A stretch of 64,000 nucleotides of DNA, from contig CAYUFS010000023.1 in the NCBI GenBank assembly GCA_964443975.1, forward strand, positions 1,953 to 65,952. The letters are read 5' to 3'. Numbering within the stretch: position 1 is the first letter of the stretch; each line of letters begins with the position of its first letter. The DNA comes from an uncultured Myxococcales bacterium. Lineage in GTDB: Bacteria; Myxococcota_A; Polyangia; Fen-1088. Under the pieces are notes generated by a model. It was not told where the DNA came from and did no database searches. It worked only from the letters and a program-made list of their open reading frames with translations. A program made the position numbers and the translations under genes. Below, piece after piece: positions 2,442 through 64,000 of the stretch.

Positions 2442-3491
2442 ATGGCTACCGCTGCAATGACCACCTCAAGTCAGGGCTCGCAGAACTCCTTTGTTTCCCG
2501 CAACTGGCGTGACCTGATTCGACCGCGAAAGCTCGAGGTCGATCCGGATTCCTTGACGCCCACTTACGGGCGATTCACCTGCGAGCCTCTCGAGAGGGGC
2601 TTCGGCACCACGCTCGGCAACGGGTTGCGCCGGATTCTGCTGTCGTCCTTGCAGGGGTCGGCCATCACGGCCCTCAAGATCGAGGGCGCCCTGCACGAGT
2701 TCACGTCGATTCCCAACGTCGTCGAGGACGTCACGGACATCGTTTTGAACCTGAAGGAAGTCCTGTTGAAGTCGGTCGACGCGAAGGCGCGCGTGCTGCG
2801 CCTCGAGAAGGACGGCGAGGGCAGCGTGACCGCGGGCGACATCGCCGTCACCGACGGCATCGAGGTGCTGAACCCTGATCACGTCATTTGCACGTGCGCG
2901 AAGGGCGCCAAGCTGCGCATGGAGCTGTACGTCGGCACCGGCCGCGGATACGTGCAGGCCGACCGCAACAAGTCGCCCACGACGCCGGTGGGCGTGGTGC
3001 CGATCGACTCGCTCTTCTCTCCGATTCGCAAGGTGAACTTCCAGGTCACCAACGCGCGCGTCGGGCAGCAGACGGACTACGATCGCCTGTCGCTCGACGT
3101 CTGGACGAACGGCGCCGTTCGGCCCGAGGACGCGGTGGCGTTCGCCGCCAAGATCCTGAAGGACCAGCTGTCGATCTTCATCAACTTCGAGGAAGGCTCG
3201 GAGCCGGCCCACGAGACCCCGGTCTCCGAGGAGCAGGCCAAGCTGAACGACAACCTGTGGAAGTCCGTCGACGAGCTGGAGCTGTCGGTGCGTTCGGCGA
3301 ACTGCCTGCAGAACGCCAACATTCGTCACATCGGCGAGCTGGTGCAGAAGACCGAGTCCGAGATGTTGAAGACGAAGAACTTCGGTCGCAAGTCGCTGAA
3401 GGAGATCAAGGAGATCCTGGCCGAGATGGGCCTGTCCCTGGGGATGAAGCTGGAAGGATGGCCGGGAGACGGACCGCCCAAGAAGGCATAA
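2442..3491 (+). CDS. rpoA: DNA-directed RNA polymerase alpha subunit
   Basis: 349-aa protein with an alpha N-terminal domain ([16 protein letters not shown]) and a C-terminal alpha-CTD ([24 protein letters not shown]). Confidence 0.97.
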
Positions 3492-30723: not shown

Positions 30724-32594
30724 CAGGGCGCCTCCACGCGGGTCACGAACGCGTCGTCCGACACCAAGGCCACCATCAGATCGACGCTGGAGATATTCTG
30801 GCCGAGCGATCGTTGCGCAGCGGCGGCCGCCGCGGTCAGGTCGCCCGCGCGCGGGATGCGCGAATAGAGATCGGCGGTCCAGCTGGTGGCGTAGCATGAG
30901 TGGAGTTGCTGGCTCTCCGCGAGCGCGTTGCTGAAGTCCACTTCGTTCGTGAACGACTTCGTTCCGTCGGTGAAGGGATAGCTGCCCGATGTGTCGATGG
31001 GCTGGCCGTTCTCCGTCGTCCGATAGACTCCCAGGCCGTTGAAGTTCTCGAAGGCGAATCCGGCGGGGTTGATGAACACGCCGTGACAGCTGGCGCCGCA
31101 CGTCCCGGGGCCGGTTATGCCGTTCACGATCTGGCGATTGGTCTGGTTCGTTCCGATCGGCGAGGGGATCGTCGGCAGGACGACCCCGGGCGGGGTCGAC
31201 ATCTCCTTGCACAGGAGGCGGCGGTTGATGTACACGCCCCGGTGGATCGAGTCCTGGGTGCTGCCGTCGTGGCCGTAGTAGGCGAGAAATCCGAGGCGCG
31301 TCAGGACGCCGGGGCGCTGTGTAGGATCGAGCTGAACCTGGGTCCAGGTGTTCGCCGAAAAGCTGCCGGTGAGACCGTAAAGGCTGGCGACGGTGCTGTT
31401 CACGAACGTGACCGGCGACGTGAAGATGTCTCGCAGGGTGCCGTTCTGGGCGAAGAGGTACTGGAGGAACTGCTGCGTCTCGGTGTGTAGCAGGGGACCC
31501 ACGGCGGCCGTGAAGGCGGGCGCGACCGCGGGATCCTTCTCGAGCGTGTCGTACTGGCCGAGCCCGAAGAACTGGAAATAGAAGCGATCCACCGCCGACT
31601 TCCCCGCGGCCGTGGCGATCAAGCGCCGCGCGTGCGCGGCGATCGCGTCTGTCCCAGCCAGCGCCGCCTGATCGGCGGCAGCCGCCAGCGTCGCATCGGG
31701 CAGGGAGTTCGTGAGCGCGTAGGACAGATTCGCCGCGATCTCGTAGTCGGTGAGGCGGGCGCGCCCCTGGACGGCGGTGTCGCCGAAGCCCGTTCGATAA
31801 AGAAAATAGGGCGATTGCAGCACGGCCTCGAGGGTGACCTTCACTCCCGCGGCAAACGTCGTCAGGCCTGTCGTCAGGCTCGGAGCCTGGTTGAACAACG
31901 TCAGGTACGCTTGCGTCTCGTCCGAGGTCAGGGGTCGCCGGAACGCGCGCCGCCCGAAGGATTGAATGAAGGACGTGGCCTTACCGGTGGCGTCGGTGGG
32001 GGCGTTGCTCGGCACCAGACGGGCGATGGCGGTGGCGTCGCCGGCGACTTGCCCGGCGAGGCTCTCCGCCGCGGATTGCAGATCGTCGTGCAAGGCCTGA
32101 TTCACGAACAGCGAGTCCGCCTCGTTGTCGAGCCGCACGACGGCGTCGGCGGTCGGCAAGGTCAAAGGCCCCGGATTCGGCAGCATCAGGAGGTCACGCA
32201 CGCTGTTCGCCCATTGGAGCTGACTGAGGCGCGAGATGGTCGGTGTGGCGACGATGGCCGCCACGCCCGGGTCGCTCCCCCCCGAGCCGGTCGCGGCTCC
32301 CGTCCCGCCGATCGCATTGCCCGTTCCGCCGCCCGTCACGCTACCGGTCCCGCCGCCGGTTCCGGGACCAGCGCCACCCGAGGCTGCGGACGTCGCGTTG
32401 CCGCCGGACCCCGGCGAAGCGCCGCCGCCAGTCCCCGAGGTCGGTGTGGCGCCGCCGCTTGCGGACGTGGCGCTCTGGCCACCTGATTGCCCGCCCCCGT
32501 CCGGGGCCGCTTGACCGCTGCCAACGACGCCCGTGCAAGCCCCCATCCCGACGAGGCAGGCCATGAAGCAGCAGGTTCCAGCGCGAGATTTCAC
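30723..32594 (-). CDS. DUF1592/DUF1588/DUF1585-type large secreted protein, partner of DUF1552
   Basis: About 620 aa with an N-terminal hydrophobic Cys-containing signal, a Gly/Ser linker and a C-terminal region (HGVFINPAGFAFENFNGLGVYR). Its stop shares a base with the DUF1552 ATG. The GTG start at 32594 is uncertain; the alternative ATG is 32564. Confidence 0.6.
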   Translation of the reverse strand: MKSRAGTCCFMACLVGMGACTGVVGSGQAAPDGGGQSGGQSATSASGGATPTSGTGGGASPGSGGNATSAASGGAGPGTGGGTGSVTGGGTGNAIGGTGAATGSGGSDPGVAAIVATPTISRLSQLQWANSVRDLLMLPNPGPLTLPTADAVVRLDNEADSLFVNQALHDDLQSAAESLAGQVAGDATAIARLVPSNAPTDATGKATSFIQSFGRRAFRRPLTSDETQAYLTLFNQAPSLTTGLTTFAAGVKVTLEAVLQSPYFLYRTGFGDTAVQGRARLTDYEIAANLSYALTNSLPDATLAAAADQAALAGTDAIAAHARRLIATAAGKSAVDRFYFQFFGLGQYDTLEKDPAVAPAFTAAVGPLLHTETQQFLQYLFAQNGTLRDIFTSPVTFVNSTVASLYGLTGSFSANTWTQVQLDPTQRPGVLTRLGFLAYYGHDGSTQDSIHRGVYINRRLLCKEMSTPPGVVLPTIPSPIGTNQTNRQIVNGITGPGTCGASCHGVFINPAGFAFENFNGLGVYRTTENGQPIDTSGSYPFTDGTKSFTNEVDFSNALAESQQLHSCYATSWTADLYSRIPRAGDLTAAAAAAQRSLGQNISSVDLMVALVSDDAFVTRVEAP

Positions 32595-32786
32595 CAAAAG
32601 GGTCCTTTCACGCCCGCTGGGCTGGCGGCAGGTGGCCAGATCGGCGGGTAAGAAGTTCGGCCTCCCGCAGTGCCGGCAGCGGGGCAGAAGGTCCACCCGC
32701 TTTGCAGAATCTCCCCATTTGAACGGGGTGCACATGCACCTACACGCAGGCCGAGGGGGAGCGGCCCGGTGCGGGCCGCATCCGCC

Positions 32787-42949: not shown

Positions 42950-44545
42950 TCATTCTCGGCGCGCAGGCGGCCGATCCAGCGCCCCGGCGGGCGGCGGGGC
43001 GTCGGAGTCCCACCCCTTCGCTTCCAGGAAACGCCGGAGGCCGGCGTGGTCCAGAGACAGCGGCGGCAGCCACTCGGCCAACCGGGTGCGTGTCCACCAG
43101 ACCTTGGCGGGCGGCGTTGCCATCTCGTAGCGGTAGAGCTCGACTCGCACGAAGTGGGGGGGCGTGCCGGCGAACGGATCGCCCGCCAGCAACTCGACGG
43201 TCGCCGGATCGCCGCGCAGGAGCTTCCAGACGAAGTGAGCGACGAAGGGGTAGTCGCCCGGGCCACGCATGGCGGCGAACCACATCAGCCAGTCGAGCCG
43301 ATAGTGATAGGGGCTCATCCAGCACGGCCGGCGTGCCGGATCGCCTGGTTTGCACTTGAAGGCGTAGGGGGTCCAGCGGGTGGACGGGGTCACGGTCGCA
43401 TCGGAGGTTCCCTCGAACACCAGCTCGTTGCGTTCGCGTCCGACGCTGCCGAACGCGCCGTAGGTGTTTACGAGCGGCAGGCGCGTGAAGGAGGTGTTCA
43501 TGGCTTGCTCTCCGGAAGCCAGGTTGATCATCACCGGCACACTCAGGACGGCGACGACGATCGCGGCCGCCTGGGCGAGCCGAGACTGCGCCCGTGACGG
43601 CGTCGCAACCGCTGCGGCGCGACGCGCGTGGGCCACCAGGCGCCGAGGCAGGATTCGGCTCCAGACGCCGTCGTCGAAGCACGCCAGGATGGGCACCAGC
43701 GTCAGCCAGTTGAGGAACGACAGATTTCCGCTGGCGAGCAGCACCAGTTGCAGCGTCGCCATGACCGCGCCGGCGACGTGCCGGACCCTTCTGGGTCCGA
43801 ACACGAAGAACGGGGCCAGCAGCTCGGCGACGTGATTGAACAAAACCCCGGCCCTGTGCGCCGCTGCGGGCAACCCGTGAAACCAGGGGCTGAGCGGGTT
43901 CGGGACGGGCTGGGTCTGGAAATGGAAGTCGAGGCAGGTCAGGTCGCGCCAGCACGGATCGCCGCGCAGCTTGATCAGCCCGGCGCCCCACATGATGCGG
44001 ACGATGAGCCAGCGAAACAGCCAGATCGCGACGAGCGAGGGCGGGCGGCGCGGAAACGGCCGGCCGTCGAGCAATGGCACGAGGAACAGCGCGAGAAACC
44101 CGGTCTCGACGAGCTGGAGCTCCCACCCGAAGCTGTAGAAGGTCTGGCCCGCGGGCAGGACCGACACCTGCAGCACCAGGAGCACGAGCAACGCGAGCGC
44201 GTTGCCGTAGCCTGCCAGCAAGAGGATCGAAATGCCGACGCCGAGCCACCCGGCGCCGAACAGGAACCGATCGCCGTCGGCGAGCCAGAACAGCGACGGC
44301 TCCTGCCAGAACGCCGCCCTCCGCGAGCCGAGGGCATCCTCGACCCGTTCGAAGGCGGATGCCGCGGGGAGCAGCCCGTGGCTGCCGAACAGCGCGGGGC
44401 CCTGATTCACCCAGGTGAGGAACGCCATCAAGTACACGAGCCCCAGCAAGCGCAAGATCAAGAACCGCGTCAGCCAGTGTCCGGGTCGGGCGGGCGGCGG
44501 CGGCGAATCCGGCTCGACGGCCCCCAACGCATCGACGGAGCCCAT
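42950..44545 (-). CDS. Lipase maturation factor (LMF1/DUF1222)-family polytopic membrane protein
   Basis: Multiple TM helices, then a C-terminal soluble region with ACFDDGVW, TYGAFGSVGRERNELVFEGT and CWMSPYHYRLDWLMWFAAM blocks characteristic of the LMF family. The start could be 44545, 44611 or 44629. Confidence 0.65.
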   Translation of the reverse strand: MGSVDALGAVEPDSPPPPARPGHWLTRFLILRLLGLVYLMAFLTWVNQGPALFGSHGLLPAASAFERVEDALGSRRAAFWQEPSLFWLADGDRFLFGAGWLGVGISILLLAGYGNALALLVLLVLQVSVLPAGQTFYSFGWELQLVETGFLALFLVPLLDGRPFPRRPPSLVAIWLFRWLIVRIMWGAGLIKLRGDPCWRDLTCLDFHFQTQPVPNPLSPWFHGLPAAAHRAGVLFNHVAELLAPFFVFGPRRVRHVAGAVMATLQLVLLASGNLSFLNWLTLVPILACFDDGVWSRILPRRLVAHARRAAAVATPSRAQSRLAQAAAIVVAVLSVPVMINLASGEQAMNTSFTRLPLVNTYGAFGSVGRERNELVFEGTSDATVTPSTRWTPYAFKCKPGDPARRPCWMSPYHYRLDWLMWFAAMRGPGDYPFVAHFVWKLLRGDPATVELLAGDPFAGTPPHFVRVELYRYEMATPPAKVWWTRTRLAEWLPPLSLDHAGLRRFLEAKGWDSDAPPPAGALDRPPARRE

Positions 44546-44662
44546 GCCGGGCGCGCCGTCGCGGCCAGGTCGCGTGCAACCGAGCTTCCAGAACCTCACC
44601 CGCCGAATCATGGACCTCGACTGGGCCACGCGTCAGGGGGCGGCCATGGTAAGGGTTGGGCC

Positions 44663-52423: not shown

Positions 52424-53407
52424 TCAGCGCGCGGGAGAAATGGTGACGTGGACGAGGGTCTGATTGAGCAACTGGAAGGCAATCTCGCCGAACGTCATGG
52501 GACCAAGGAGTGACCCCGTTCGGTGGTTTTCGAGCTCGCCGTAGAGGTAATTGAGCACGCAATTGCAGGTGAACACGGGCGCCCCGACGTCCGAGGGGAT
52601 CGAGGCGAGGAAACGTTGCGGATAGCTCTCGATGGGGCGGGCGAATCGATACGACACGCCCTCGAACACGGGGGCGTAGAGCTTGACGGTCGCGCTTTGC
52701 GCGTCGAGCGCCTGAATGCTGACGTTGATCAGCGCGCCGCAAAAATTGGCGACCAGGGGCAGGCGGGTGTCGAGGCGCTTGCCCACTACGTAGTCGTGGA
52801 AGTTCCGACGCTCACCGTTGATCGTGCAGTCCTTCACCCCGAAGCCCGAGGCAGGGAAGGTGATCTCATCTCCGTCCGCGGCGGGCTCGAAGATGTTGAC
52901 GATACCGATCTGCGCGCGGTGGGATTCGGGCAAGTCGACGTGAAGCGCCACCCCGCGATCCGACAGCACCTCGCCGGTCATGCCGTTGAAGACCTTCGGG
53001 GTTTTCTTGCCGAGATCATCGAGGTGAATCCCCGAGATCCACCCGGCCACCGTCTTCAGGAACAGGTCCTTGTAGAGCGGCGCCTCGAGCGCGTATTGCT
53101 GGTGGATGGGCGTGAAGGCAGGGAGGATCAGGATGGTGTAGCCGTTCTCCGGGGAGTCCTCGCCAATCTTGGCGATGGTGCTCACGTCGTAGACCGTGGC
53201 GGTCCGCGGGTGCGCGAACGGCGGGGCCACCTCCACGAAGATGCCCGTGCGAGATGTCTTGCCGCCCTCCTCGGTCATGAAGTAAGGGATGGTGCCTCCG
53301 ATCCAACTGCCGCGAGGCACGGCGCGCAGCACATCCTCCTCCGCGGCGAGGACGAGGGTCTTGCCGGCCGCCAAAAGTTCCTTCACTTGGTCGATGGTCG
53401 CGAACAT
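52424..53407 (-). CDS. Possible FIST-domain sensor protein
   Basis: The C-terminal block LGPMTFGEIAFQLLNQTLVHV resembles the FIST_C consensus (GEI...NqT) as I recall it. About 327 aa. Confidence 0.35.
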   Translation of the reverse strand: MFATIDQVKELLAAGKTLVLAAEEDVLRAVPRGSWIGGTIPYFMTEEGGKTSRTGIFVEVAPPFAHPRTATVYDVSTIAKIGEDSPENGYTILILPAFTPIHQQYALEAPLYKDLFLKTVAGWISGIHLDDLGKKTPKVFNGMTGEVLSDRGVALHVDLPESHRAQIGIVNIFEPAADGDEITFPASGFGVKDCTINGERRNFHDYVVGKRLDTRLPLVANFCGALINVSIQALDAQSATVKLYAPVFEGVSYRFARPIESYPQRFLASIPSDVGAPVFTCNCVLNYLYGELENHRTGSLLGPMTFGEIAFQLLNQTLVHVTISPAR

Positions 53408-53417
53408 GCGCTTCTCC

Positions 53418-53636
53418 TTAGCCGAACAGCCGCTTGATATCGTCGCCGAGGATGGCCTCGTATTTGAGGAAGAACTTCCGCGCTTCTTCCGCGAGCGCGT
53501 CGAACTGCGAGTGGTCCTTCTGGTACTTGCTGCGCAGGTTGAACATCAGCATGCTGGCGGAGGCCAACTTGAATTGGTGGTTCGTGCTGCCCTTGATCAG
53601 TGCTGCCCACGCGGGGTGCGTCTTTGCAGGAATCAT
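53418..53636 (-). CDS. Hypothetical 72-aa protein
   Basis: Small ORF 10 nt upstream of the FIST-like gene on the same strand. The codon pattern looks coding. No motif recognised. Confidence 0.3.
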   Translation of the reverse strand: MIPAKTHPAWAALIKGSTNHQFKLASASMLMFNLRSKYQKDHSQFDALAEEARKFFLKYEAILGDDIKRLFG

Positions 53637-54043
53637 TTCGCTTTGTCCCTCTCGCAGGGGCCATCGGTGAGGGGGGAGCGAACTTGAGAGGGCGCGCGAA
53701 GAGGCCGGATCCCCGCGGCCGGGACGGCTCGGGCGACGCGGGTCTACGATTGTCGGCGAGTCGGCGATCGTCGGGCCGATCCTTCATTCGATGCGCAATC
53801 TGCGCAGGCCGATCCGCGTGAGCGACCGTCGCTTTCCCTAATTGAGCAACCCCGCGACCCGCGCTCCGGAAGCGCTCGTGTGGGGCGCCGGCCGCCCTGC
53901 CCATCAGTTTGGTTCGATCCCTGCAGGTGCGGGCGGCCACGATGCTCCAGCCCGCGACCTCCGTGACACGCCAAGGCGCGGGGACGATGAAATCGGCGCT
54001 TGCCTGCCCGCGGGTCTCCGTGCCAGGACTGGTTAGGCCCACG

Positions 54044-55225
54044 ATGGGAAGCGGCTTCCGGATCGACGCGTACCTTCAGGACTGTCGCCGGTTGACGCTT
54101 GAGGAAATCAAGAGACACGTCCCGCGCGACACCCGAAACACCGCGGGCCTGTACGACCTCATCCTCGACTATCCGATGCGTCCCGCCAAGGCGCTGCGTC
54201 CCGCGCTCTGCATTGGTGTCTGCCTGGGTCTAGGAGGCCACCTCGATGCGGCGCTGCCCTCGGCGGCCGCATTCGAATTGTTTCACAACGCGTTCCTGGT
54301 CCACGACGACGTCGAGGACGCGTCGCTGCTGCGTCGCCACGGGCCGACGCTGCACTCCACTCATGGCGTCCCGATCGCGGTCAACGTAGGTGACGCGATG
54401 TTGGCGGTCGCCTTCGCTCCGTTGCTCGACAACGTTCGCGTCGTCGGGCTGGGCCCGGCGCTGAAGATCCTGCAGTCGTTCGCACGGATGGCACGTGAAT
54501 CCGCTGAGGGACAGATGCTGGAGCTCGACTGGATCCGAAACCGTCGCTGGGATTTGGAGGACCGTGACTACCTGCGCATGGTCCACAAGAAGACAGGGTG
54601 GTATTCGTTCATAGCGCCGATACAGGTGGGCGCGATCGCCGCCGGCGCGGATCGCCGGACCATCGATACGCTGGGGCGGTTCGCCGTGACCCTGGGCATC
54701 GCGTTCCAGATTCAAGACGACTTGCTGAGCTTGGAGGGAGGGGAGGGCACGATCGGGAAGGACGCACTGGGCGACCTCTGGGAGGGGAAGTACACGCTCG
54801 CGCTGCTGCACGCGCTGCGCTCGTTGCCCGAGCCCGAGCGCCGCGAGGCGTTCGCGATTCTGGCGCTGTCGCGCGCGACGCCGCCGGATGACGGAGCGCC
54901 TCCCGACGATTCGACGGACCGGGCCCGGCTGTTCGCAAGGCTCGTGAATGGGGCCGTCCCGCTTTCCGTGGGCGAGCGGGCCATCCTCGAGAAGGCGCTC
55001 CTCGGCGCGCCCGCCGACAACCGAACCGCCGCCGACGTCCGCAGGCTCCACGAGCTCGTCACGGGTCGCGGAGGAGAGAGTCTCCTGCACGCGCGGCGAA
55101 TCGCCCGCCGGCTGGCGGGTCGATCCATGGCGGTGCTGGACCGCGGCCTGAAGGAGTTGCCCGATTCCATACACAAACTGTTTCTGAAAGAACTGGTCGA
55201 GTTTGTGATACACAGATCCCGCTGA
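54044..55225 (+). CDS. Polyprenyl (trans-isoprenyl) diphosphate synthase, FPP/GGPP synthase family
   Basis: First Asp-rich motif FLVHDDVED and second FQIQDDLLS. The start is placed at Met 54044 (alternative 53987). Confidence 0.85.
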   Translation: MGSGFRIDAYLQDCRRLTLEEIKRHVPRDTRNTAGLYDLILDYPMRPAKALRPALCIGVCLGLGGHLDAALPSAAAFELFHNAFLVHDDVEDASLLRRHGPTLHSTHGVPIAVNVGDAMLAVAFAPLLDNVRVVGLGPALKILQSFARMARESAEGQMLELDWIRNRRWDLEDRDYLRMVHKKTGWYSFIAPIQVGAIAAGADRRTIDTLGRFAVTLGIAFQIQDDLLSLEGGEGTIGKDALGDLWEGKYTLALLHALRSLPEPERREAFAILALSRATPPDDGAPPDDSTDRARLFARLVNGAVPLSVGERAILEKALLGAPADNRTAADVRRLHELVTGRGGESLLHARRIARRLAGRSMAVLDRGLKELPDSIHKLFLKELVEFVIHRSR

Positions 55226-55243: not shown

Positions 55244-55819
55244 ATGACGAGGTCTGGCTCGGGGGGCGAATCGGCGGGTGAAGAGGATGCGCTGCTCGCT
55301 GCGCTGCTAAGAATCCACCGAACGAAGCGGCAGCGGCAGAGAGAGCGCGAGGGAGCGCCGAACGCTTCGTATGAGCGAATCCTCGGTCATTTCGCCCAGA
55401 GGGGAGACAGACTGCGCGGCGAGAAGCTGGTCACGGCCGAGCTGATCGAGCGACTGTTCGAGGCCGGACGCGTGATTCCGGCGCGTCGGGTTCAACAGGA
55501 GCTCAACATCGTCGGCGGCGCTGGCTCCCGGGCGGCGGGGCGATTGAGGCTCGCTAACCGTTCGGCCACACGAGCGCGCTTCGAGTTCGTCGTTGGTGAT
55601 CCCCTTGAAGGCGGCAGCCCTCCACGGGTCGTCTTCGAGCCCCACGGGGGCGAGCTCGATCCAGGCGAGACGCGGCTGGTCAGGGTCGAGGCGGACCTCG
55701 GAGGTTGGCGCGAGGGGGACGCGATGACGATCCCGGTGGAATGTCGATGGGACAAGGGCCGTGATCGTCTTTGGCTCGATGTCTCCGCCCTGCCCCTCGC
55801 TCGTGAGGGCGATCGATGA
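55244..55819 (+). CDS. Hypothetical protein
   Basis: 191-aa ORF 19 nt after the prenyl synthase. Its stop overlaps the next start (ATGA). Confidence 0.45.
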   Translation: MTRSGSGGESAGEEDALLAALLRIHRTKRQRQREREGAPNASYERILGHFAQRGDRLRGEKLVTAELIERLFEAGRVIPARRVQQELNIVGGAGSRAAGRLRLANRSATRARFEFVVGDPLEGGSPPRVVFEPHGGELDPGETRLVRVEADLGGWREGDAMTIPVECRWDKGRDRLWLDVSALPLAREGDR

Positions 55820-56199
55820 CCGCTCCGGACGACGATCTGCTGCCCGAGGTCGTGATTGGCGATCAGGAGGACGCCGTCCTCGATCTGCTGCGTGAAATGC
55901 AGAGCGCCGCGCTCGTGCACTCGGAGGCGACTCGGGCCCTGTACCGGAGCCTCATACAGGAAGGCAGGCTATTCGCGCAGACCGCCATCGGCAGGCGATG
56001 GAAGGACCGGATCCTTCGGTCGACGCTGCTCGAGCGGGCCGTGTTGATTTGGCAGAACGCCACGCTGTGGATAACGGAGGAGCCAGCAGACACCGCGACG
56101 CCCTCGGCGCTGATCGACGCGGTCGCGGCGGCCGCCACGTCGCCGCGCCGAGACGAGTTGCTGGATCGCCTCTTCAAAGACCTGGACGACGGAGCGTGA
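55816..56199 (+). CDS. Hypothetical protein
   Basis: 127-aa ORF, translationally coupled on both sides. Confidence 0.45.
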   Translation: MTAPDDDLLPEVVIGDQEDAVLDLLREMQSAALVHSEATRALYRSLIQEGRLFAQTAIGRRWKDRILRSTLLERAVLIWQNATLWITEEPADTATPSALIDAVAAAATSPRRDELLDRLFKDLDDGA

Positions 56200-56200
56200 C

Positions 56201-56500
56201 ATGCTGGAAGAACAGCTCGAGCAATTCTCCGGCCGTGATGGATTCGCTCACATGCTGCTCGGGATCGTGGGATTCACCGAGCGCTTGGCGGCGGTCACCG
56301 CCATTCCCCGTCCGGACGGGGGCGTCTGTGCTGACGGACCTTTGGCTCACCTCCTGATGGGGGTGATCTCCGCGGGGCTGACCCTGCGGGCTGCCCTGCT
56401 GTGCGATCAGGCCCGCGCGGCGGCGGAATCGAAGCCCGAGGGGGGCGGCGCTGCCAACGAGCCGGGGCCCATCGATGCGTCCAAGGGGATGCTGCGATGA
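56201..56500 (+). CDS. Hypothetical protein
   Basis: 99-aa ORF with hydrophobic stretches (HMLLGIVGFTERLAAVTAI, LLMGVISAGLTL). Its stop overlaps the next start. Confidence 0.4.
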   Translation: MLEEQLEQFSGRDGFAHMLLGIVGFTERLAAVTAIPRPDGGVCADGPLAHLLMGVISAGLTLRAALLCDQARAAAESKPEGGGAANEPGPIDASKGMLR

Positions 56501-57561
56501 CCGTCACGGGTCGTCTGGACCCCGCGATCGCACGTTCCGTGACGCGCGTGGACGCCTGGCGCCAATCAGCGAAGAGCGCCGCCAGCGACAGTGGCTCGTA
56601 CAAGGAGTGGATGCACTTCTGCGTCTGCCTCGCGGATCGCACCCACCCAACGGGACACCTGCTGGTGAACCTCAACGTCACTGACAGCCTCCTGGCGGGA
56701 GCTCGAACGCGCAATCCCCGGCTGATTGCGCTCGGCTACCTCGGCGATTGGACGGGAACGCTGGAGACCTTCGGGGACGATGCGGTTTCGGGCGGCGCGG
56801 GCGGATTGGATCTGTTCCTCGGGCGAAATGGCGTGAGCTGGAGGGACGGCGCGTATGTCCTCGTCCTCGACGCCGCAGAGATCGCCGCCGACCTCCGGCT
56901 CCGGCCCCTCGTGCCGCCCACGGTACCGAGTCAGGTGTCGTTCGGCGGCCGGCACTCGATAGCGTGGGTGGTCGTCCCGCGCCTCGAGGCCACGGGCTGG
57001 GTGCGGATCGGCGGCCGCACGTTACGTCTCGAGCGGGCGTCCGCCTATCACGATCACAACTGGGGACACTTCCGATGGGGCGGCGACCTCGCCTGGGAGT
57101 GGGGCTTCGTCAACCCGGCCGATGCGCGCTGCCCGTTCAGCGTCGTCTTCGCGCGGGTGTCCGATCGCGGTCGTCATTGCACGTTCAGCCAAAGCGTGCT
57201 GCTGTGGCGCCGGGACAGCCTCATCCGCACCTTCCAGGACCGAGAGGTGCGGATGACCATGGAGGGTGCCCACCCGGGCCCCCGTCCGTTCACCCTGCCC
57301 CGGGTGGCGTCGCTCCTGCTGCCCGGCACCAGCTCCGGCGTGCCGTCGCGGGTCCTCGTCGAAGCGCGGGGCAGGGACGAGCAAGTGACGATAGACCTCG
57401 TCACGAGCTCGAAGGCTCGCATCGGAATCCCGAGCGACACGGACCCCTTTCGGCTTGTCGTGCTCAACGAGACCTGCGGCGAAGCCCGCGTGAAGGGCTC
57501 CACCCGCGCGGCCGACCTCGACTTCGCCGGCCCCGCTGTCATGGAGTTCGTACGTGGCTGA
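56497..57561 (+). CDS. Hypothetical 354-aa protein; weak resemblance to a carotenoid-hydratase (CrtC)/AttH-like beta-sandwich
   Basis: Start at the internal Met (MTVTGRLDPAIAR). Contains AYHDHNWGHFRWGGDLAWEWGF. The family call is unverified. Confidence 0.45.
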   Translation: MTVTGRLDPAIARSVTRVDAWRQSAKSAASDSGSYKEWMHFCVCLADRTHPTGHLLVNLNVTDSLLAGARTRNPRLIALGYLGDWTGTLETFGDDAVSGGAGGLDLFLGRNGVSWRDGAYVLVLDAAEIAADLRLRPLVPPTVPSQVSFGGRHSIAWVVVPRLEATGWVRIGGRTLRLERASAYHDHNWGHFRWGGDLAWEWGFVNPADARCPFSVVFARVSDRGRHCTFSQSVLLWRRDSLIRTFQDREVRMTMEGAHPGPRPFTLPRVASLLLPGTSSGVPSRVLVEARGRDEQVTIDLVTSSKARIGIPSDTDPFRLVVLNETCGEARVKGSTRAADLDFAGPAVMEFVRG

Positions 57562-58000
57562 GACGCGCGCGGAGGCGCTGCCGCGGTTTCTCGAAGCCGC
57601 CATGTCGAGTCTCTCACATGAATCGCCCGCGCATCTGAGCGCCATGCAGCAGACGCTGCGCGACCTGCGCGCGGTTGTCCGCGTCGATGGCGCACCTCCC
57701 TTCAGCGTCTGCGTCGGCGCTGGACACGCATGGGTCGACCGGCGTCTCGCTCAAGGCGACGTTGAAGTTACGATGGAGGAATCGGCACTTACTGACCTCC
57801 TCCTAGGTCGCCTCACCATGGAGGAAGGCGTCCTCAACGACCGGGTCTTCGTTCGGGGCTCGCTGGATACCCTCCTGAAATTCTTGGAGGGCTGGGCTGA
57901 ATGGCTTCATGGCGCCTTGCGCTGCCCTTCGATGCCGGCTGTCCACCGGCAACTCCTGGCCATGGAAGTTGGCCGCCCAGTGAACCACCGTCCGGAATAG
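57554..58000 (+). CDS. SCP2 sterol-carrier-like domain protein
   Basis: A GTG start overlaps the upstream stop. TMEESALTDLLLGRLTMEEGVLNDRVFVRGSLDTLLKFLEGW resembles the SCP2 lipid-binding fold pattern. Confidence 0.5.
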   Translation: MAETRAEALPRFLEAAMSSLSHESPAHLSAMQQTLRDLRAVVRVDGAPPFSVCVGAGHAWVDRRLAQGDVEVTMEESALTDLLLGRLTMEEGVLNDRVFVRGSLDTLLKFLEGWAEWLHGALRCPSMPAVHRQLLAMEVGRPVNHRPE

Positions 58001-58017
58001 AGAACAGGGAGGCCATC

Positions 58018-61000
58018 ATGTTCAATCAGGGAAAAAAGTCGCAGAGGCTGAGCTTTGGACCGCGGGCGAGGGACTTTCTTCCTCCGGAACCGTCTGACCC
58101 GACAAGCGTGGCTGCGGATTCAGCCGCCGGGCCAGCTCGCCCGGGGGCCAAGCAGAACGCAGGCGCGAGCGCCGTTGTTACCGCCCAAGCTGCCGCACGA
58201 CAGGAATCGAAGCTGCTCGAGAAGCTGCGGGCGGACGGGCGCAGTCGCCGGCCGGAGCCGAGGCTGCCCGGCAAACACGCGCTGAACCCGCCGATCGTGA
58301 CTATCTTTGGCGCGGGAGTGGCGGGGCTGACGGCGGCTCATGAGTTGGTCGATCGTGGATTCCTCGTCCAGGTAGTGGAAGCCAGCGAAGATTTGTCTTG
58401 CCCGGGTCGCCCGATTGTCGGCGGCCTGGCCGCCAATCAGCCGGCCAGGGTCAGAGCCAACATCGAGGACCTTCACCGAGACATCATGATCGCTGCCCTG
58501 ACACCCCAAGTTGACGGCGAGCCGCAGGCGCTCAGCTCCACGAGGCGAGTCGCGGCGTGGCTCTTGAATTTGTTCGCGTTCAATCGTAGCCGATGGATTC
58601 AGACCGAGGAGCCCCAGAGAATCAATGGGTGCATCTTTTCCTCTCCAACCGATCCCGCTGCAAAGATATACAAGGAGCATCTTCTGCGCGACCTGGCAAA
58701 TGCCCGCCACCACTACAGAAACCGCTGGTTGTGGGACCTCATTGTCCGACCAGCAATGTTGGGCGCTATCAAGCCAAGAACGCCGGACGTCGACGTCAAC
58801 GCCGACTGCAAGAAGCTCTACGACAAGCTCATGGGGGCTGATGTCGCGGTGACGTCCATCTCAAAGGAGCTCCTTACCCATTTCGAGGGAACGGACGTCA
58901 CGACCGAGTTGCCGAGCTCCACGCAGATCCACTCCTGCCCGTCCCTGGTCACCCTGGGCATGGAACGGGAGTTCCTTTCGTTTCGCTTGATCCCTTTCGC
59001 CCGCCAAGGCTTCGAAGACGCCCCTAGGCTGGCGCGCGCCCTCTACCAGGAGTGGCTCCACGTGTTCGAGAGTCACGATATCTTCAAGTACTCTTGCGTC
59101 TCTTGCCCTCCGCCGGAAATGGAACAGGCTCTCAATGAAGGTACCAAGCACACGAGGTCGACACGAGAAAACCTAGTTCCGCTTGATGGTGACGGCGTTC
59201 CAATCGCGGTCGAAGTCGCAGAGGCACCGCCGGAATTCCCATTTCAAGCGTGGCTTCAGCTCGAGATTGTCGAGCAACGTCTGCCCGGAGAGCACGGGTA
59301 TCGCTTTTTCCCGTCATTTTATCGGCATCTCGACGACACCATGGCCCGCATCCCCCTTTATCAAAATGGCCAGACCACTGGACGAACGGTTCTCGACAAT
59401 CTCAAGCCCACGGTCTTCCAGGGCATCGGGCTATCCGACGAGGATCGTAAGACGATCGTGTCGCTCAGGCAGAGTAGCCGCCGACCCAATCTGGAAGCGC
59501 AGGATCCGAACCAAAGGGACGACAGATATCCAAACTACGACGACCCGATGCTTTCGCCGTGCCGTGACGAAGCGAGCGGCGCGGTCGTAGAACTGCACCG
59601 CGAGAAGCCTCGCAGTATCGAGGCGTTCCGGGACTGCACGGATCGATTCGTCAAACGTCTGGGCGGGACGAGGCGAGATGCGGTGATCCTACTGTCCAAG
59701 CTGATTCGTTTCATGACATCGAGTCCAGAGCGGCGGAGGGCCAAGTACGAGGACCTGACCTGGGCAGAGTTCCTGGACGTGTCGAAGTTTTCAAAACCGA
59801 TGCAAAAGCAGATTCAATCGGCTGCTCAGGCGCTGTTGGCATTTTCGGCTTCAGAGGCGGACGCCAGAACCTACGGAAACATAGCGGTCCAAATGCTGCT
59901 CGACGAGTTGCGGGATGGCACACGGGTCGATCGAACCCTCAACGGACCAACGAGCGATGCGTGGCTGGAGCCGTGGCGAGAGCACCTTGAGCGCCAAGGC
60001 GTCAGATTCTTTCTCGGAAGGCTCAGCGCGCTGGAGCTCAAGAACGATGAGATCATTCCAAGAATCGACTTTAGTTCAGCGCAGGATCGGGTGTCCCAGG
60101 ACGCCCACGAGATTTTGACTGCGTCATTGGCCAACGAAGGGTTGCGGCCGGATTTTTATGTGTTGGCTCTGAATATCGAGCAGAGCCAGCGGTTGATTGA
60201 GCAGATTGTGATCGATCCGGGAGCCGACGCGGCCGCGCCTGTCACCGCTGGAGTGGTCGTCGAAAAGCATAAAGATCTGGCGCCGGATTTCGCGACCTTC
60301 CTCGACTTCGGGAAGGAGGTGCAAGATCGAAAGGCGATGAAGACCATGACGGGCGTGCAGTATTTTTTTGATGCCAAGACCGACGTTGGAAGAGGGCACA
60401 TGTACTTCCCATTCTCGAGTTGGGGTTTGTCATCCATTTCCCAGTCTCAATTTTGGTCCCGGCGCGGGAGCTTCTCCGATGGATACTTCGGGCTCCTTTC
60501 AGTGGACGTATGCACCACCGGGATAGGACCTGATGGCCCTCCCGAGCCAGGATCGTTCGCCGATGCTCTCAGACCCGGGGAGCAGAAGGATGGGTACGAC
60601 GTACAGAGGCGTGTTCTCGAAACAGGCCAGCAGACCCTAAAGCAAATTGCGGACAGGATCGGGGGAGGACGGCAACTCGGAGATCCCAGATGTCTTCACA
60701 TCGATCGGAATCTGTCTCGGCCGGCGAAGGAGAAGACAGAGTTCCTCGCGTCCATGGCGGGGATGAAGAAGCCCCGCGCTGGTCTGAGACCGGTTGGCCC
60801 CGATGGGCATGTGTGTGTGGGTGTCAAAGAGATCGAATACGATCTGAACTTCAAAAGATGGGTGTTATGCGGGACGTTCATGGCGACCCGCACCCGCATG
60901 ACGACTATGGAGTCAGCCAATGAATCGGGCCGACATGCCGTCGCCGCAATTCTGAGACGCCTGTCGATGGACGACGCGTCTGACAGCGTCAAGGCAGAAT

Positions 61001-61443
61001 ACCTCGACCACGGCTACCAGATCGAGAACCTGTCAAACAGGACCTACAATTGGGCGTCGAAGTTTAGAACGTACGAGGCGCCGCCCACTTGGAATCCTGA
61101 AGACGAGGAGTTGGAGGATCTGGACTTCTTCCGCCGGGTGGACCGGCGCTTGATGAACCTGAACCTTCCTCACCTCATGGATATCGTTGACTTTGATGAC
61201 AAGGTCGAGCATGCGGTTCAGGCGATCGAGCTGTACGGGAGAGAGAAGCCGCTGTCGAACCTCTTTGGGGCGTCAATGGCGGGGCTCGACGCCGGATTGG
61301 TCAAGGAGTTGGGGGATGGGTATGCGAAGCTCGAAACGGCTCGGTGGGACGAGGCGACGCGAGCGGCGGCCGGGCCACCATTCGGCGATATGGTGCAGAT
61401 AAACGAACGGTGGAAGAAGGTTCTTGGGCTCTTCAGGCTTTAG
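58018..61443 (+). CDS. Giant (1141 aa) flavin amine-oxidase-fold protein with about 900 aa of inserted sequence
   Basis: AGGGAGG Shine-Dalgarno before the ATG at 58018. Beta-alpha-beta FAD fold PIVTIFGAGVAGLTAAHELVDRGFLVQVVEAS about 110 aa in. C-terminal amine-oxidase motif VLCGTFMATRTRMTTMESANESGRHAVAAIL. The local GC content is markedly lower. Confidence 0.7.
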   Translation: MFNQGKKSQRLSFGPRARDFLPPEPSDPTSVAADSAAGPARPGAKQNAGASAVVTAQAAARQESKLLEKLRADGRSRRPEPRLPGKHALNPPIVTIFGAGVAGLTAAHELVDRGFLVQVVEASEDLSCPGRPIVGGLAANQPARVRANIEDLHRDIMIAALTPQVDGEPQALSSTRRVAAWLLNLFAFNRSRWIQTEEPQRINGCIFSSPTDPAAKIYKEHLLRDLANARHHYRNRWLWDLIVRPAMLGAIKPRTPDVDVNADCKKLYDKLMGADVAVTSISKELLTHFEGTDVTTELPSSTQIHSCPSLVTLGMEREFLSFRLIPFARQGFEDAPRLARALYQEWLHVFESHDIFKYSCVSCPPPEMEQALNEGTKHTRSTRENLVPLDGDGVPIAVEVAEAPPEFPFQAWLQLEIVEQRLPGEHGYRFFPSFYRHLDDTMARIPLYQNGQTTGRTVLDNLKPTVFQGIGLSDEDRKTIVSLRQSSRRPNLEAQDPNQRDDRYPNYDDPMLSPCRDEASGAVVELHREKPRSIEAFRDCTDRFVKRLGGTRRDAVILLSKLIRFMTSSPERRRAKYEDLTWAEFLDVSKFSKPMQKQIQSAAQALLAFSASEADARTYGNIAVQMLLDELRDGTRVDRTLNGPTSDAWLEPWREHLERQGVRFFLGRLSALELKNDEIIPRIDFSSAQDRVSQDAHEILTASLANEGLRPDFYVLALNIEQSQRLIEQIVIDPGADAAAPVTAGVVVEKHKDLAPDFATFLDFGKEVQDRKAMKTMTGVQYFFDAKTDVGRGHMYFPFSSWGLSSISQSQFWSRRGSFSDGYFGLLSVDVCTTGIGPDGPPEPGSFADALRPGEQKDGYDVQRRVLETGQQTLKQIADRIGGGRQLGDPRCLHIDRNLSRPAKEKTEFLASMAGMKKPRAGLRPVGPDGHVCVGVKEIEYDLNFKRWVLCGTFMATRTRMTTMESANESGRHAVAAILRRLSMDDASDSVKAEYLDHGYQIENLSNRTYNWASKFRTYEAPPTWNPEDEELEDLDFFRRVDRRLMNLNLPHLMDIVDFDDKVEHAVQAIELYGREKPLSNLFGASMAGLDAGLVKELGDGYAKLETARWDEATRAAAGPPFGDMVQINERWKKVLGLFRL

Positions 61444-61455
61444 AATCCGCTGCCG

Positions 61456-64000
61456 CTATGGCGCGCGCGGAGACACCCTGAGCTGGTCAGAAATGAGCCG
61501 TTCGACGCGCGCGAGATCGTGGCGCGCACCAATTCTACGAAAGAGCTCTGCCGCCTCTCCGAGGTAGCGCGCGCGGTCAGGAGGGCTGATCGCGTGTTCT
61601 CCCAGGGCGGCCAGCGCCATCCCTTCATCATGCGCCATCGAGAGACTGCGGGCGCGCTTCAGACTCGCTTGAAAATGACGCCTGGCGCGCTTCACGTTTC
61701 CGTCCACGTTGGCGGCCTCGATGCCCTGCCAGAGGGAAGCCCGTGGCGAAGCGATCACCATCACCCGGCTCACCGCCCTTATTCGCTTCACGGCATGTCG
61801 TACGAGCTGTTCTAGGTCGTGCTTGTCTTGGCGGTTCGTCGACAGGGTCCACAAACGGAAGTGGACCTCGGCAACGGCGCCGTAAGCGAAGATGTTGTAG
61901 AAGACCGGAGCCGTCCCCTTGCTATCCCATGCCGAGCAGCGTCGCGCGGCGTCTTGGGCCGCCTGAGCGTCGCCGGACCTCAAATAAGCGAGAGCCAGAG
62001 CGCCAAGCGCATAGATCCACTCGGCACGGCCGAGGGCGTTGCGGCAAAGTCGTTCTCCTTCTCTCGCGTCCGTGACGGCAGCGGTCGCTTCGCCGCCCAT
62101 CAAATGTAGCTCCGCCCGCTTGACCACGGCCCAGCATTTGCTCTGGGGATCTGCCCGTTCCGTCGTTCCGAGGAGCCGTTCATTGACATCGTGGGCCTCG
62201 CGGAATCGTCCTGCAAGGAATAGGGCGGTGCCGAGTTGTGCAGTGGATTCCTCCCACCTCCGACTAAAGCCCATCCGCAATGACATGAGTCCGACCTGCT
62301 GGAGGGTTGATTGAGTCTGGTCCCAGCGACCCGCCTGGAGATGGACGAGCGCCACGTTCATTAGGACCCACGTCTCCGCGAGCTCGTCTCCGCTCTCCTT
62401 GGCCACCTGCGTGGCCCGTTGGCAGTAGGATTGGGCAATACCATCGAGGTTGGCGAGCGAACACATCGCCGCGAACGTGGCATACCCGAGTGCGCGCTCT
62501 GCTGAGGCGCCGCCCGCCTGTTCTGCGAGATCCATGTTTGTCAGGCCGGCGAGGGTCACCGCCAGCATGTTGCCGGTGACAAAGTAGTGCACGACCAACA
62601 GCCGTTCGTAGGCACGGGCCGCTTCCAGCAGCAATTCGCGAGCAACACCTTCCGGTTGCAGAAGGGGCAGTGATGACGGCAGCGAACGCCGAATGAGCTC
62701 TCGGGCGAGTGAAAGGACGCAGCGAGCGGCCATTCCCGCCCGGGAGCGAGGCCAGCGTTTCCCCGCGATCCCAGCGGCCTCGACCAGACTCGACGAAGCC
62801 AGGTCCATGTTCCCCAGAGCCAGGGCATTGAGACCGAGGAGTCGTTCTCTTCGGGCGCGGGCGAGCACCGAGGCCTTCGCAGAAACCAACATCTCCAGCG
62901 ACTTGGCTCTCTCCAGCAAGCCGATCGCCTCGGCATTCGCGTGCATCGCATGGGCGGCCTCACCGGCCTTGTCCAGGTACTCCAGGGCTTTTGCGAAGTC
63001 CTTTGCTTTCTCGAAGTGATGGGCCAGGGTGGCGTAGACGCTGTCCAAGGTCCCTGCCTCCGCGTGCCGGCGCTCTAGCAGGACCGCCGCTGCCGCATGG
63101 AGCCTCGCCTGTCGCTCGGCGGATAGCCCCTCGTAGGCGATCTCCCGGAGCTTGTCGTGTACGAACCTCACCGATCCCGGCAGTGAGGGCTCGAGGATCT
63201 GCCGCACCAGGAGGTTTCGCAGCGTCTGCCCGAACGCTGTCTCATCGGCGACTCCGACGGCGAGGGCCAGCGCGGACAACACCTCGATCTGCACTTCGCG
63301 GCCCAGGACCGCCGCGACCTCGGTCAGGCGTCGCGAGGTATCGAGGAGGCCGTCGAGTCGGCGCGTCACCAGCGCCTGCAAGGTGTGCGGCAGGCCGAGG
63401 CCATCGAGCGCCATTCCCCCGCCGGACTGTTGCCATCTCCCGCGGTCGTCCCGGAAAAGCAGGCCAGCGTCGACCGCGGCCCTCAGGTATTCAGCGACAA
63501 AGAACGGGTTTCCGGACGACTCCTCGGTCAGGAAAGCCGCCAGCGTGTCCGGAACTTGCCTCTGCCCGAGCATGTCCGCCGACATGGCGCCGATCGTCGC
63601 GGCGTCGAGCCTGTCCAGGCGAAAGTGGGTTGAATGCGAAAGCCCGGCCAGTCGGTCGAGGTCGGGGGTCGACTCCTCGGCGCGATAGGTCGCGACGACG
63701 AGGACCGGGTTCTCTCCGTAGTAGCGTTCCGTCAACGAGGACAGGAAGGCCAGGGTGAGATCGTCCGCCCACTGCAGGTCATCCAGCACCAACAGGGTCG
63801 GTCTGTCCGAGGCGAAGCTCGCCAGGGTTTCGGCCATTGCATCGATCAGCCGCCGTCGGGAGGCTTCGCCGGGTATCTCGGCCGGCTCTGGATAGGATTC
63901 GACCCCCGGCAGGTTTCGTAGCGTGGGCTCGCATGCGGCCAAGACCTTGGCGCGCTCACCGAGCATCCGTCGCGTGAGCGTCTCTCCCCCCGCGACGCAG
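61456..64000 (-). CDS. STAND-type P-loop NTPase with C-terminal TPR-like repeats (partial; its 5' end lies beyond the window)
   Basis: The frame is open to the window edge upstream of the first Met. LLVLDDLQWADD (Walker B / hhhhDD), a GNPFFV helical domain, then about 500 aa of helical repeats. It converges on the flavoprotein gene. Confidence 0.7.
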   Translation of the reverse strand, partial: CVAGGETLTRRMLGERAKVLAACEPTLRNLPGVESYPEPAEIPGEASRRRLIDAMAETLASFASDRPTLLVLDDLQWADDLTLAFLSSLTERYYGENPVLVVATYRAEESTPDLDRLAGLSHSTHFRLDRLDAATIGAMSADMLGQRQVPDTLAAFLTEESSGNPFFVAEYLRAAVDAGLLFRDDRGRWQQSGGGMALDGLGLPHTLQALVTRRLDGLLDTSRRLTEVAAVLGREVQIEVLSALALAVGVADETAFGQTLRNLLVRQILEPSLPGSVRFVHDKLREIAYEGLSAERQARLHAAAAVLLERRHAEAGTLDSVYATLAHHFEKAKDFAKALEYLDKAGEAAHAMHANAEAIGLLERAKSLEMLVSAKASVLARARRERLLGLNALALGNMDLASSSLVEAAGIAGKRWPRSRAGMAARCVLSLARELIRRSLPSSLPLLQPEGVARELLLEAARAYERLLVVHYFVTGNMLAVTLAGLTNMDLAEQAGGASAERALGYATFAAMCSLANLDGIAQSYCQRATQVAKESGDELAETWVLMNVALVHLQAGRWDQTQSTLQQVGLMSLRMGFSRRWEESTAQLGTALFLAGRFREAHDVNERLLGTTERADPQSKCWAVVKRAELHLMGGEATAAVTDAREGERLCRNALGRAEWIYALGALALAYLRSGDAQAAQDAARRCSAWDSKGTAPVFYNIFAYGAVAEVHFRLWTLSTNRQDKHDLEQLVRHAVKRIRAVSRVMVIASPRASLWQGIEAANVDGNVKRARRHFQASLKRARSLSMAHDEGMALAALGEHAISPPDRARYLGEAAELFRRIGARHDLARVERLISDQLRVSPRAP

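Follow-up and report, generated by a model that had tools for sequence, protein, structure and literature searches.

The stretch of DNA analysed here (64,000 nucleotides of contig CAYUFS010000023.1 from an uncultured Myxococcales bacterium, called the window below) carries near its end a row of seven co-directional, tightly packed genes with overlaps of 4 nt and 8 nt, the last of which encodes an 1141-residue flavoprotein with a predicted phytoene desaturase (PDS)-like core. The flavoprotein gene, which is the subject of this work, occupies positions 58018 to 61443 of the forward strand, and the other six genes also read forward. An unbroken open reading frame (ORF) spans 57901-61443 on this strand. 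Within it, the start supported by our reading of the sequence is the ATG at 58018, with a Shine-Dalgarno-like AGGGAGG located 5 nt upstream (58006-58012, forward strand), and the frame closes with a TAG stop codon at 61441-61443. The stop codon of the preceding gene (TAG, 57998-58000) falls just before this Shine-Dalgarno-like site. The seven genes form a translationally coupled operon.

The original prediction had described the product as an oversized protein of the flavin amine oxidase fold, and had raised the concern that a frameshift or a sequencing error might have merged two genes. Our results show that 58018-61443 is a genuine gene and not a frameshift fusion. The same 1141-residue product (P0001) is called in four sources (NCBI, JGI, ENA and Logan), and 23 contigs assembled from independent samples (JGI, ENA, Logan) encode an identical flavoprotein. 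Moreover, 36 full-length homologues of 1011-1173 residues align with it end to end, at 35-80% identity and with a query coverage of 87-100%, except for one of them (P0034, 51%), and in an alignment of 53 homologues the invariant residues are scattered along the whole chain. The guanine-cytosine (GC) content is higher at the third codon position (GC3, 0.70) than at the first (GC1, 0.62) and higher at the first than at the second (GC2, 0.45). Together with the 199 homologues found at E ≤ 1e-3 and with a confident structural model, this order argues that the gene is real and not a chance ORF. An assembly error that joined two or more genes into one long frame would be the other explanation, and errors do hit this family, as some homologues from long-read metagenome-assembled genomes (MAGs) are fragmented (P0037, of 667 residues, and the locus L006). 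Yet the errors observed break genes apart and never join them, the flavin adenine dinucleotide (FAD) site can form only if the motifs at residues 98 (Rossmann) and 963 (C-terminal) belong to one chain, and the predicted model is a single compact assembly, so that we attach practically no probability to such an artefact. In the MAG locus L006 (10001-13128) the flavoprotein gene appears as three collinear high-scoring segment pairs in frames 2, 3 and 1, and its apparently split form is hence due to frameshifts. This was the sole apparent case of the split homologues that had been proposed as a check. Shortened homologues in the databases (P0031, P0037 and P0038) are probably frameshift-type artefacts as well. 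At a further locus (L004, 5975-7196) it is the prenyl synthase gene of the operon that is called in two pieces (189 and 232 residues), probably again through a frameshift.

The two flavin motifs on which the original prediction relied are both present. The FAD-binding Rossmann beta-alpha-beta unit and the GG motif that follows it lie at 58288-58446 (forward strand), with GAGVAGL at residues 98-104, E121 at the end of beta-2, and the glycine pair at G135 and G136. The C-terminal FAD-binding motif region lies at 60886-60954 (forward strand; residues 957-979, T957...TTMESANESGRHAVAAIL), with TMESANESGRHAVAAI starting at residue 963. The separation between both motifs is 865 residues, instead of the roughly 1000 first estimated. 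Among the 53 homologues, G98, G100, G103, G135 and G136 are invariant and E121 is nearly so (at least 90%). In the C-terminal motif region, where TTMESANESG is invariant or nearly so, the invariant positions are T957, R960, E965, N968, E969, A974 and L979.

Matches to Pfam and NCBIfam profiles are confined to residues 94-127, that is, to the Rossmann motif (PF13450, E 1e-4). The Amino_oxidase profile PF01593 narrowly passes its cut-off of 19.8 with 20.3 bits, yet aligns through its positions 1-24 only, and searches of the PDB with either the single protein or a profile of the 53 sequences returned the same motif of about 40 residues and nothing beyond it. Membership of the superfamily holds nevertheless in a transitive manner, because relatives of about 550 residues that align to residues 94-981 of the flavoprotein match the whole Amino_oxidase profile (positions 1-443 of 443, E 1e-15 to 1e-26). 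The predicted structure, furthermore, has the two-domain organization of the superfamily, with an FAD-binding domain, a substrate-binding domain and the C-terminal FAD motif. Among the named families of the superfamily, the best NCBIfam models for the 550-residue relatives are HpnE, ZDS and PDS, every one of them below its cut-off. The PDS model TIGR02731 (cut-off 569 bits) is absent from the matches of the flavoprotein at E ≤ 0.1 and gives 29-53 bits for the relatives, and the HpnE model TIGR03467 scores 33.3 bits against a cut-off of 283, over residues 94-126 only, which places the protein outside HpnE as defined by that model. From these sequence comparisons, the flavoprotein is a member of the amine oxidase/PDS superfamily that does not belong to the PDS, ZDS, CrtI or HpnE equivalog families. 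The name given to this type of protein at JGI ('NAD-binding domain and iron-sulfur cluster', of the COG3349 type) led us to consider an iron-sulfur cluster, which we rejected since no conserved cysteine cluster exists: none of the 12 cysteines is invariant, no CxxC-type cluster is found, and the best conserved ones (C832, C892, C933 and C951) are scattered.

An AlphaFold2 model built from the 53-sequence alignment reached a mean predicted local distance difference test (pLDDT) score of 81.1 and a predicted template modelling (pTM) score of 0.85. It consists of one assembly with low confidence only at residues 1-88 and from about 1079 to 1141. The structure prediction and Foldseek search that had been suggested for this protein thus gave a confident model, with rice PDS (5mog, E 1.8e-10) as the top match. 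On the basis of this model, the catalytic core (residues ~91-143 and 406-990) has a fold of the plant and cyanobacterial phytoene desaturase type. Its larger part, after the Rossmann motif and the insertion described below, is encoded at 59233-60987 (forward strand; residues 406-990), and contains PGEHGYRFFP at residues 423-432 as well as small lineage-specific loops. We scanned the family alignment against 185,579 species genomes with tblastn, and found the relatives of about 550 residues in Paenibacillus, Domibacillus, Bacteroidota, Corallococcus and haloarchaea (E 1e-37 to 1e-43), aligning from residue 94 to about residue 981.

Alignment with these relatives delimits the segments that the flavoprotein has in excess, and bears out the claim that large insertions roughly double its size. 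The N-terminal extension (58018-58287, forward strand; residues 1-90) is missing from the relatives. It is an Ala/Pro/Arg-rich segment of low complexity, predicted to be disordered (pLDDT 36-61), so that the low-complexity N-terminus noticed earlier does exist, over some 90 residues and not 110. Neither a twin-arginine motif nor a lipobox occurs within it. Directly after the beta-alpha-beta unit and the GG motif comes the largest segment, an insertion of 262 residues (58447-59232, forward strand; residues 144-405). A loop of 46 residues (478-523) and four loops of 16-20 residues (684-699, 735-754, 839-857 and 923-940) are distributed over the rest of the core. The C-terminal extension (60988-61440, forward strand; residues 991-1141) includes a part shared with the relatives (1028-1056) and is confidently modelled as a beta-hairpin and helices up to about residue 1073, with low confidence over residues 1079-1141. 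In operons of the Sorangium type, which are discussed below, an extra ORF of about 103 residues overlaps the end of the flavoprotein gene (L086, 11399-11710; L087, 11166-11480); this ORF does not occur in the window. We considered the C-terminal extension as a fusion with it, as found in the Sorangium and JGI loci, but BLASTP comparisons (E 2.7 and 0.057) gave no support to this idea. A crude hydropathy scan detected no signal peptide and no transmembrane segment, and the sole hydrophobic segment was Rossmann beta-1 (maximum KD19 1.57 at residue 93). The flavoprotein is apparently cytoplasmic and probably membrane-peripheral.

Sequence profiles recognize no domain in the extra length, in agreement with the original prediction, but in the predicted structure residues 144-405 adopt a degenerate OmpA-like fold. 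The elements modelled are a beta-strand at ~203-207, a long helix at 213-247, a strand at 321-329, a helix at 335-352 and a strand at 399-401. The last strand (residues 411-419) falls just past the block (59248-59274), and a helical sub-insertion occupies residues ~260-319. This succession corresponds to the beta-alpha-beta-alpha-beta-beta fold of OmpA-like domains. The pLDDT of the insertion is about 90 within the full model, and a separate model of the insertion, built from 25 aligned sequences, has a pLDDT of 89.3 and a pTM of 0.87. The OmpA profile PF00691 gives no match in the flavoprotein at E ≤ 0.1. It does match (E 1e-5 to 1e-9) at the equivalent site of five relatives (P0072, P0053, P0055, P0069 and P0040), and in the closest outgroup proteins, which have 720-830 residues and 31-34% identity (for instance P0072 of Sorangium sp. 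So ce448), the OmpA domain is found at residues ~82-173. Some of the larger relatives retain a near-canonical GYTDxDG...NRVEFEIVEQ that runs directly into PGEHG(Y/F)RF, and the corresponding strands of the flavoprotein read EFLSFRLIPFA and AWLQLEIVEQ. The OmpA-like assignment of residues 144-405 thus rests on predicted structure and on positional homology. It also corrects the suggestion of a fusion enzyme, as the domain is inserted inside the FAD-binding domain and is not joined end to end with a second enzyme.

OmpA-like domains normally serve as extracytoplasmic anchors to peptidoglycan, in which an Asp (G-x-T-D) and an Arg (L-S-x-x-R-A) bind diaminopimelate. In the flavoprotein, the G-x-T-D position reads RLIPFA, so that the Asp would be gone, and the Arg remains (RLARA); this reading is provisional, given the weak positional alignment (hhalign E 0.013). 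Compared with the canonical form, some 160-180 residues of helices have been added. As there is no signal peptide or transmembrane segment, and as the Rossmann motif of P0072 starts at about residue 13, the domain is apparently cytoplasmic, and our crude hydropathy scan gave no sign of the extracytoplasmic location that is typical of such domains. The site itself is an insertion hot spot, since the spacing between GxGxxG and GEHG varies across the family: it is 325 residues in the flavoprotein, 142-292 in most myxobacterial and Binatia relatives, 84-87 in the insert-free myxobacterial relatives (L013, L022 and L052) and 83-87 in the actinobacterial orthologues linked to the operon. Searched against 1.84 billion proteins, a profile of the insertion retrieved 21 cluster representatives, every one of this same protein type or its fragments, with the match at residues ~80-420 of proteins of 1030-1140 residues, or in fragments; no stand-alone or split version of the insertion was found among these representatives. 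The elaborated insertion is hence a rare, derived state. Taken as a whole, the fold and architecture of the flavoprotein are in our view very likely to be as described here.

The first gene of the operon (54044-55225, forward strand, with the start as in locus L001) encodes a trans-prenyl diphosphate synthase of 393 residues (Pfam polyprenyl_synt, E 3e-55), for which NCBIfam matches of the geranylgeranyl diphosphate (GGPP) synthase type remain below cut-off. Its motif HNAF(L/I)(I/V/L)H-DDxED is kept in 32/32 loci. The residues at positions -5 and -4 relative to the first Asp-rich motif are Ala and Phe, which we take to be a signal of chain length by analogy with avian farnesyl diphosphate synthase mutants; this analogy suggests a product of the C20 type. 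The best NCBIfam model is that of the family 2 encapsulin cargo polyprenyl transferase, whose cut-off of 450 bits is not approached by the score of 172 bits obtained here, and no encapsulin was matched among the nearby genes scanned, although no scan was aimed at a shell gene in the window or in the orthologous loci. Three small genes follow, whose products of 191, 127 and 99 residues have no detected relatives of known function. The second gene (55244-55819, forward strand; 191 residues) has no Pfam or NCBIfam match, and ORFs of similar size occupy its position in orthologous operons. The third (g127; 55816-56199, forward strand), which overlaps the second by 4 nt, encodes a helical protein of 127 residues with orthologues in more than 25 loci and a conserved motif (...AAQA.F.ALVAEGR.FA.TPEG); its profile gave no credible PDB or Pfam match. 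The fourth (g99; 56201-56500, forward strand) encodes 99 residues, rich in Ala and Pro, and overlaps the fifth gene by 4 nt. In most loci an ORF of 86-116 residues separates gene 3 from gene 5, and about a dozen of these ORFs align clearly with g99. Conservation is poor save for an N-terminal F..(D/N)..L...LLG and a terminal ...LLR (about 14 of the 19 aligned), the latter directly adjacent to where the next gene starts or overlapping with it (for example in L010, 8053-8403; L014, 7622-7960; and L039, 8265-8546).

The fifth gene (g354; 56497-57561, forward strand) encodes a protein of 354 residues that has the motif YHDHNWG and shows a weak relationship to DUF2804, tocopherol cyclase and CrtC. 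Within its family, whose members are all named hypothetical, Pfam matches cluster around this motif and are all below cut-off (out of 13 members, 9 match DUF2804, 7 match Tocopherol_cycl and 1 matches CrtC), and the family profile gave nothing credible in the PDB. The sixth gene (g148; 57554-58000, forward strand), overlapping the fifth by 8 nt, encodes a putative lipid-binding protein of 148 residues, SCP2-like in that its sub-threshold matches coherently point to proteins of the SCP2 fold (alkyl sulfatase C-domain, SCP2-like 2 and UbiJ).

Comparison across genomes shows that conservation of the operon extends over Myxococcota, Binatia and Actinomycetota. The same gene order surrounds flavoprotein homologues at 100, 56, 47, 43 and 35% identity, and is found again around the OmpA-positive proteins of Sorangium So ce448 and of a JGI metagenome, including a convergent kinase gene and a sigma-54 activator gene. 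Out of 80 genome loci found by tblastn, g354 adjoins the flavoprotein in 32, nearly all of which have the prenyl synthase and g127 too, and in which the operon-linked flavoproteins measure 720-1040 residues. The loci with the operon include Sorangium, Nannocystaceae, Archangium, Labilithrix, Binatia, Mycolicibacterium chlorophenolicum, M. tusciae and Pseudonocardiaceae. The 550-residue relatives lack this operon, and their neighbours reveal no known isoprenoid pathway, those in Paenibacillus being uninformative. In Domibacillus aminovorans (L061, 5466-11611), the 550-residue relative directly follows a set of MobA-like, CoxM-, CoxL- and CoxS-like genes.

On the other side of the flavoprotein gene, and convergent with it, a gene on the reverse strand (61456-63966 and beyond the window end) encodes a protein of 1292 residues with Ser/Thr kinase, AAA_16 and TPR parts, and ends 12 nt from the flavoprotein stop codon. 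The N-terminal kinase part falls outside the window. The kinase gene is followed by a gene for an FHA or GAF and sigma-54 activator protein (as seen in L001, 8419-14298). A convergent gene of the kinase type is present in all close orthologous loci and in the Sorangium-type loci, and the recurrence of the kinase and sigma-54 activator pair suggests a regulation dedicated to the operon. No sigma-54 promoter (TGGCAC-N5-TTGC, with up to 2 mismatches) was found in 53400-54044, ahead of the first operon gene, and matches over the entire window were as many as expected by chance. A DUF6976 gene (52424-53407, reverse strand; E 2e-130) lies divergently just upstream of the operon and does not recur beside orthologous operons.

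The flavoprotein gene also differs from its surroundings in composition, and the original prediction had taken this as a possible mark of horizontal acquisition. Its GC content is 0.589, and most of its 300-nt segments fall between 0.55 and 0.59. The remaining genes of the operon are at 0.64-0.69, and values over the window as a whole range from 0.62 to 0.77. When its codon usage is compared with that of 14 other genes of the window, the use of TTT, AAT, ATT and GAT is raised by a factor of 1.4-2.7, the shares being 37% against 14% for TTT, 44% against 16% for AAT and 29% against 15% for ATT. The low GC content and the preference for TTT and ATT thus stand, but AAA is barely enriched (15%, amounting to 7 codons only, against 11%). 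A recent transfer of the flavoprotein gene would explain the GC gap and the excess of codons ending in A or T, and the patchy distribution of the operon over three phyla is compatible with transfers too, though ancient ones of the whole operon. However, much of the drop is at GC1 and GC2 and is hence due to amino-acid composition: K, E, D and Q are more frequent in the protein and A, G, V and T less so, and GC1 is 0.62 versus 0.68-0.76 in the other operon genes, while GC3 (0.70) is essentially no lower than in two of them (0.71 and 0.72). The same dip recurs in orthologues inside their own operons, with a flavoprotein gene at 0.643 among neighbours at 0.69-0.70 in one operon and at 0.633 among neighbours at 0.70-0.76 in another, so that a recent acquisition is not supported. 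The gene is, besides, translationally linked to a conserved operon that is kept in relatives down to 25-35% identity. We therefore consider recent acquisition of this gene very unlikely; it is possible that the operon as a whole moved between phyla long ago.

Bringing together the fold and the insertion, obtained by prediction, and the conservation of the operon, obtained by comparison, we favour the view that this locus encodes an FAD-dependent flavoprotein, made of a PDS-like core with an OmpA-like insert, within an operon for an isoprenoid lipid, a statement to which we assign an overall probability of about 0.6. That the flavoprotein itself would be an FAD-dependent isoprenoid desaturase or oxidoreductase is, on this evidence, an even bet. 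In the scheme that we infer, covering substrate class, reaction, electron acceptor and role of the insert, the GGPP-synthase-like prenyl synthase would supply the isoprenoid chain, and the SCP2-like protein would hold and present the hydrophobic intermediate. The CrtC/tocopherol cyclase-like protein might hydrate or cyclise a double bond, and the flavoprotein, with its FAD, would introduce or remove a C=C bond of the isoprenoid. PDS binds FAD non-covalently, is reoxidised by a quinone rather than by O2, and its single hydrophobic cavity is open towards the bilayer (PMC5703498). As in PDS, the electrons of the flavin could pass to a membrane quinone. The OmpA-like insert, finally, would be a docking or oligomerisation module and not a cell-wall anchor, because both the Asp that binds peptidoglycan and access to the periplasm appear to be lacking. 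More tentatively, and with odds that we put below even, the operon may represent a previously undescribed isoprenoid-lipid pathway, in which a desaturase of myxobacteria and Binatia captured an OmpA-like domain for a cytoplasmic use unrelated to peptidoglycan. The captured domain could then provide a docking site for the small proteins of the operon or for the convergent kinase/AAA+ regulator, or it could assemble a lipid-handling metabolon.

Several observations weigh against this interpretation. The family hidden Markov models of PDS, ZDS, CrtI and HpnE are all far from cut-off on the flavoprotein, and its fold was judged from model scores and structure matches. In the comparison by hhalign of the insertion with the canonical OmpA-type inserts of relatives, the alignment fell in the expected register but was not significant (probability 3%, E 0.013). 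For both g354 and g148, no match to a lipid-related family rises above threshold, and the operon contains no phytoene synthase, no squalene synthase (no gene of the SQS_PSY type) and no terpene synthase. Moreover, the relative in Domibacillus adjoins a molybdenum hydroxylase operon, so that the wider family is not uniformly linked to isoprenoids, and the short branch may work in the catabolism of heterocycles or amines rather than in isoprenoid metabolism.

A true amine oxidase is another reading of the flavoprotein. Acting on polyamines, amino acids or alkaloids, it would oxidise a C-N bond, and the operon would make or degrade a nitrogen-containing compound. We hold this to be improbable. 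The flavin could also serve a redox-neutral reaction on a lipid double bond, as in isomerases and hydratases such as CRTISO, oleate hydratase or the fatty-acid isomerase of P. acnes. Comparison at the sequence level does not separate this option from a desaturase, yet the matches to enzymes of that type are weaker than that to PDS, and we regard it as unlikely. An isoprenoid-lipid operon with a PDS-like flavoenzyme remains the reading that we prefer.

Elsewhere in the window, a type III polyketide synthase gene (11349-12467, forward strand), with chalcone/stilbene synthase N and C domains, is located some 42 kb upstream and is unrelated to the operon. A bacterial homologue of the lipase maturation factor, a family best known from eukaryotes, is encoded at 42950-44629 on the reverse strand (Pfam LMF1, E 2e-58; LMF1_C, E 1e-42). 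Both rpoA (2442-3491, forward strand) and a gene for a PSD/PSCyt-domain protein (DUF1587/1588/1592/1595; 30723-32735, reverse strand) mark the window as chromosomal DNA.

The catalytic fold and the enzyme class of the flavoprotein are well known. What appears to be new is the predicted presence of an OmpA-like domain within the FAD-binding domain of a flavoenzyme that is apparently cytoplasmic, with forms ranging across the family from canonical to elaborated and motif-less. Also apparently new is a cross-phylum operon that pairs a prenyl synthase with proteins of the lipid-handling type and a flavoenzyme, and in which every member is annotated as hypothetical. We found no description of this architecture or of this operon in the family libraries searched or in the literature, our search of which was incomplete, so that this absence is no proof. 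Should the operon produce a new isoprenoid lipid, the membrane or secondary metabolism of myxobacteria and mycobacteria would gain a pathway. If the architecture is as predicted, the family would offer a natural series for the study of how a Rossmann flavoprotein tolerates and repurposes an insertion, with no insert in actinobacteria, a canonical one in Sorangium and an elaborated one here.

Among known systems, two provide functional analogies for the logic of the operon. In purple bacteria, CrtC and CrtD associate a hydratase-like beta-barrel with a flavin desaturase of the CrtI family on the end group of an isoprenoid, and in the Ubi metabolon the SCP2 protein UbiJ presents a polyprenyl lipid to soluble flavoenzymes. 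These are analogies only and not evidence of membership, as the sequence links are sub-threshold and, unlike in the CrtC/CrtD and Ubi systems, crtB, crtI and ubi genes are absent. The likeness to HpnE (TIGR03467) lies in the scores, since this is the best-scoring NCBIfam model for the flavoprotein as well as for its 550-residue relatives, and in the branch, which is the same PDS/ZDS-like one; HpnE itself acts on an isoprenoid. In contrast to HpnE, however, the flavoprotein has no squalene-synthase-like hpnC or hpnD genes beside it, its neighbours being the prenyl synthase and uncharacterised proteins. Compared with plant and cyanobacterial PDS (rice, 5MOG), to which it is 17% identical, the flavoprotein is 2.4 times longer and adds the OmpA-like insertion, the disordered N-terminus and the C-terminal extension, and its operon lacks a phytoene synthase. 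The insert differs in turn from the OmpA, MotB and Pal domains (PF00691) in being embedded in a flavoprotein that has no signal peptide and is apparently kept away from peptidoglycan. For the interruption of the fold itself, the system to compare is LSD1/KDM1A, in which an amine-oxidase-like domain is interrupted by the Tower domain.

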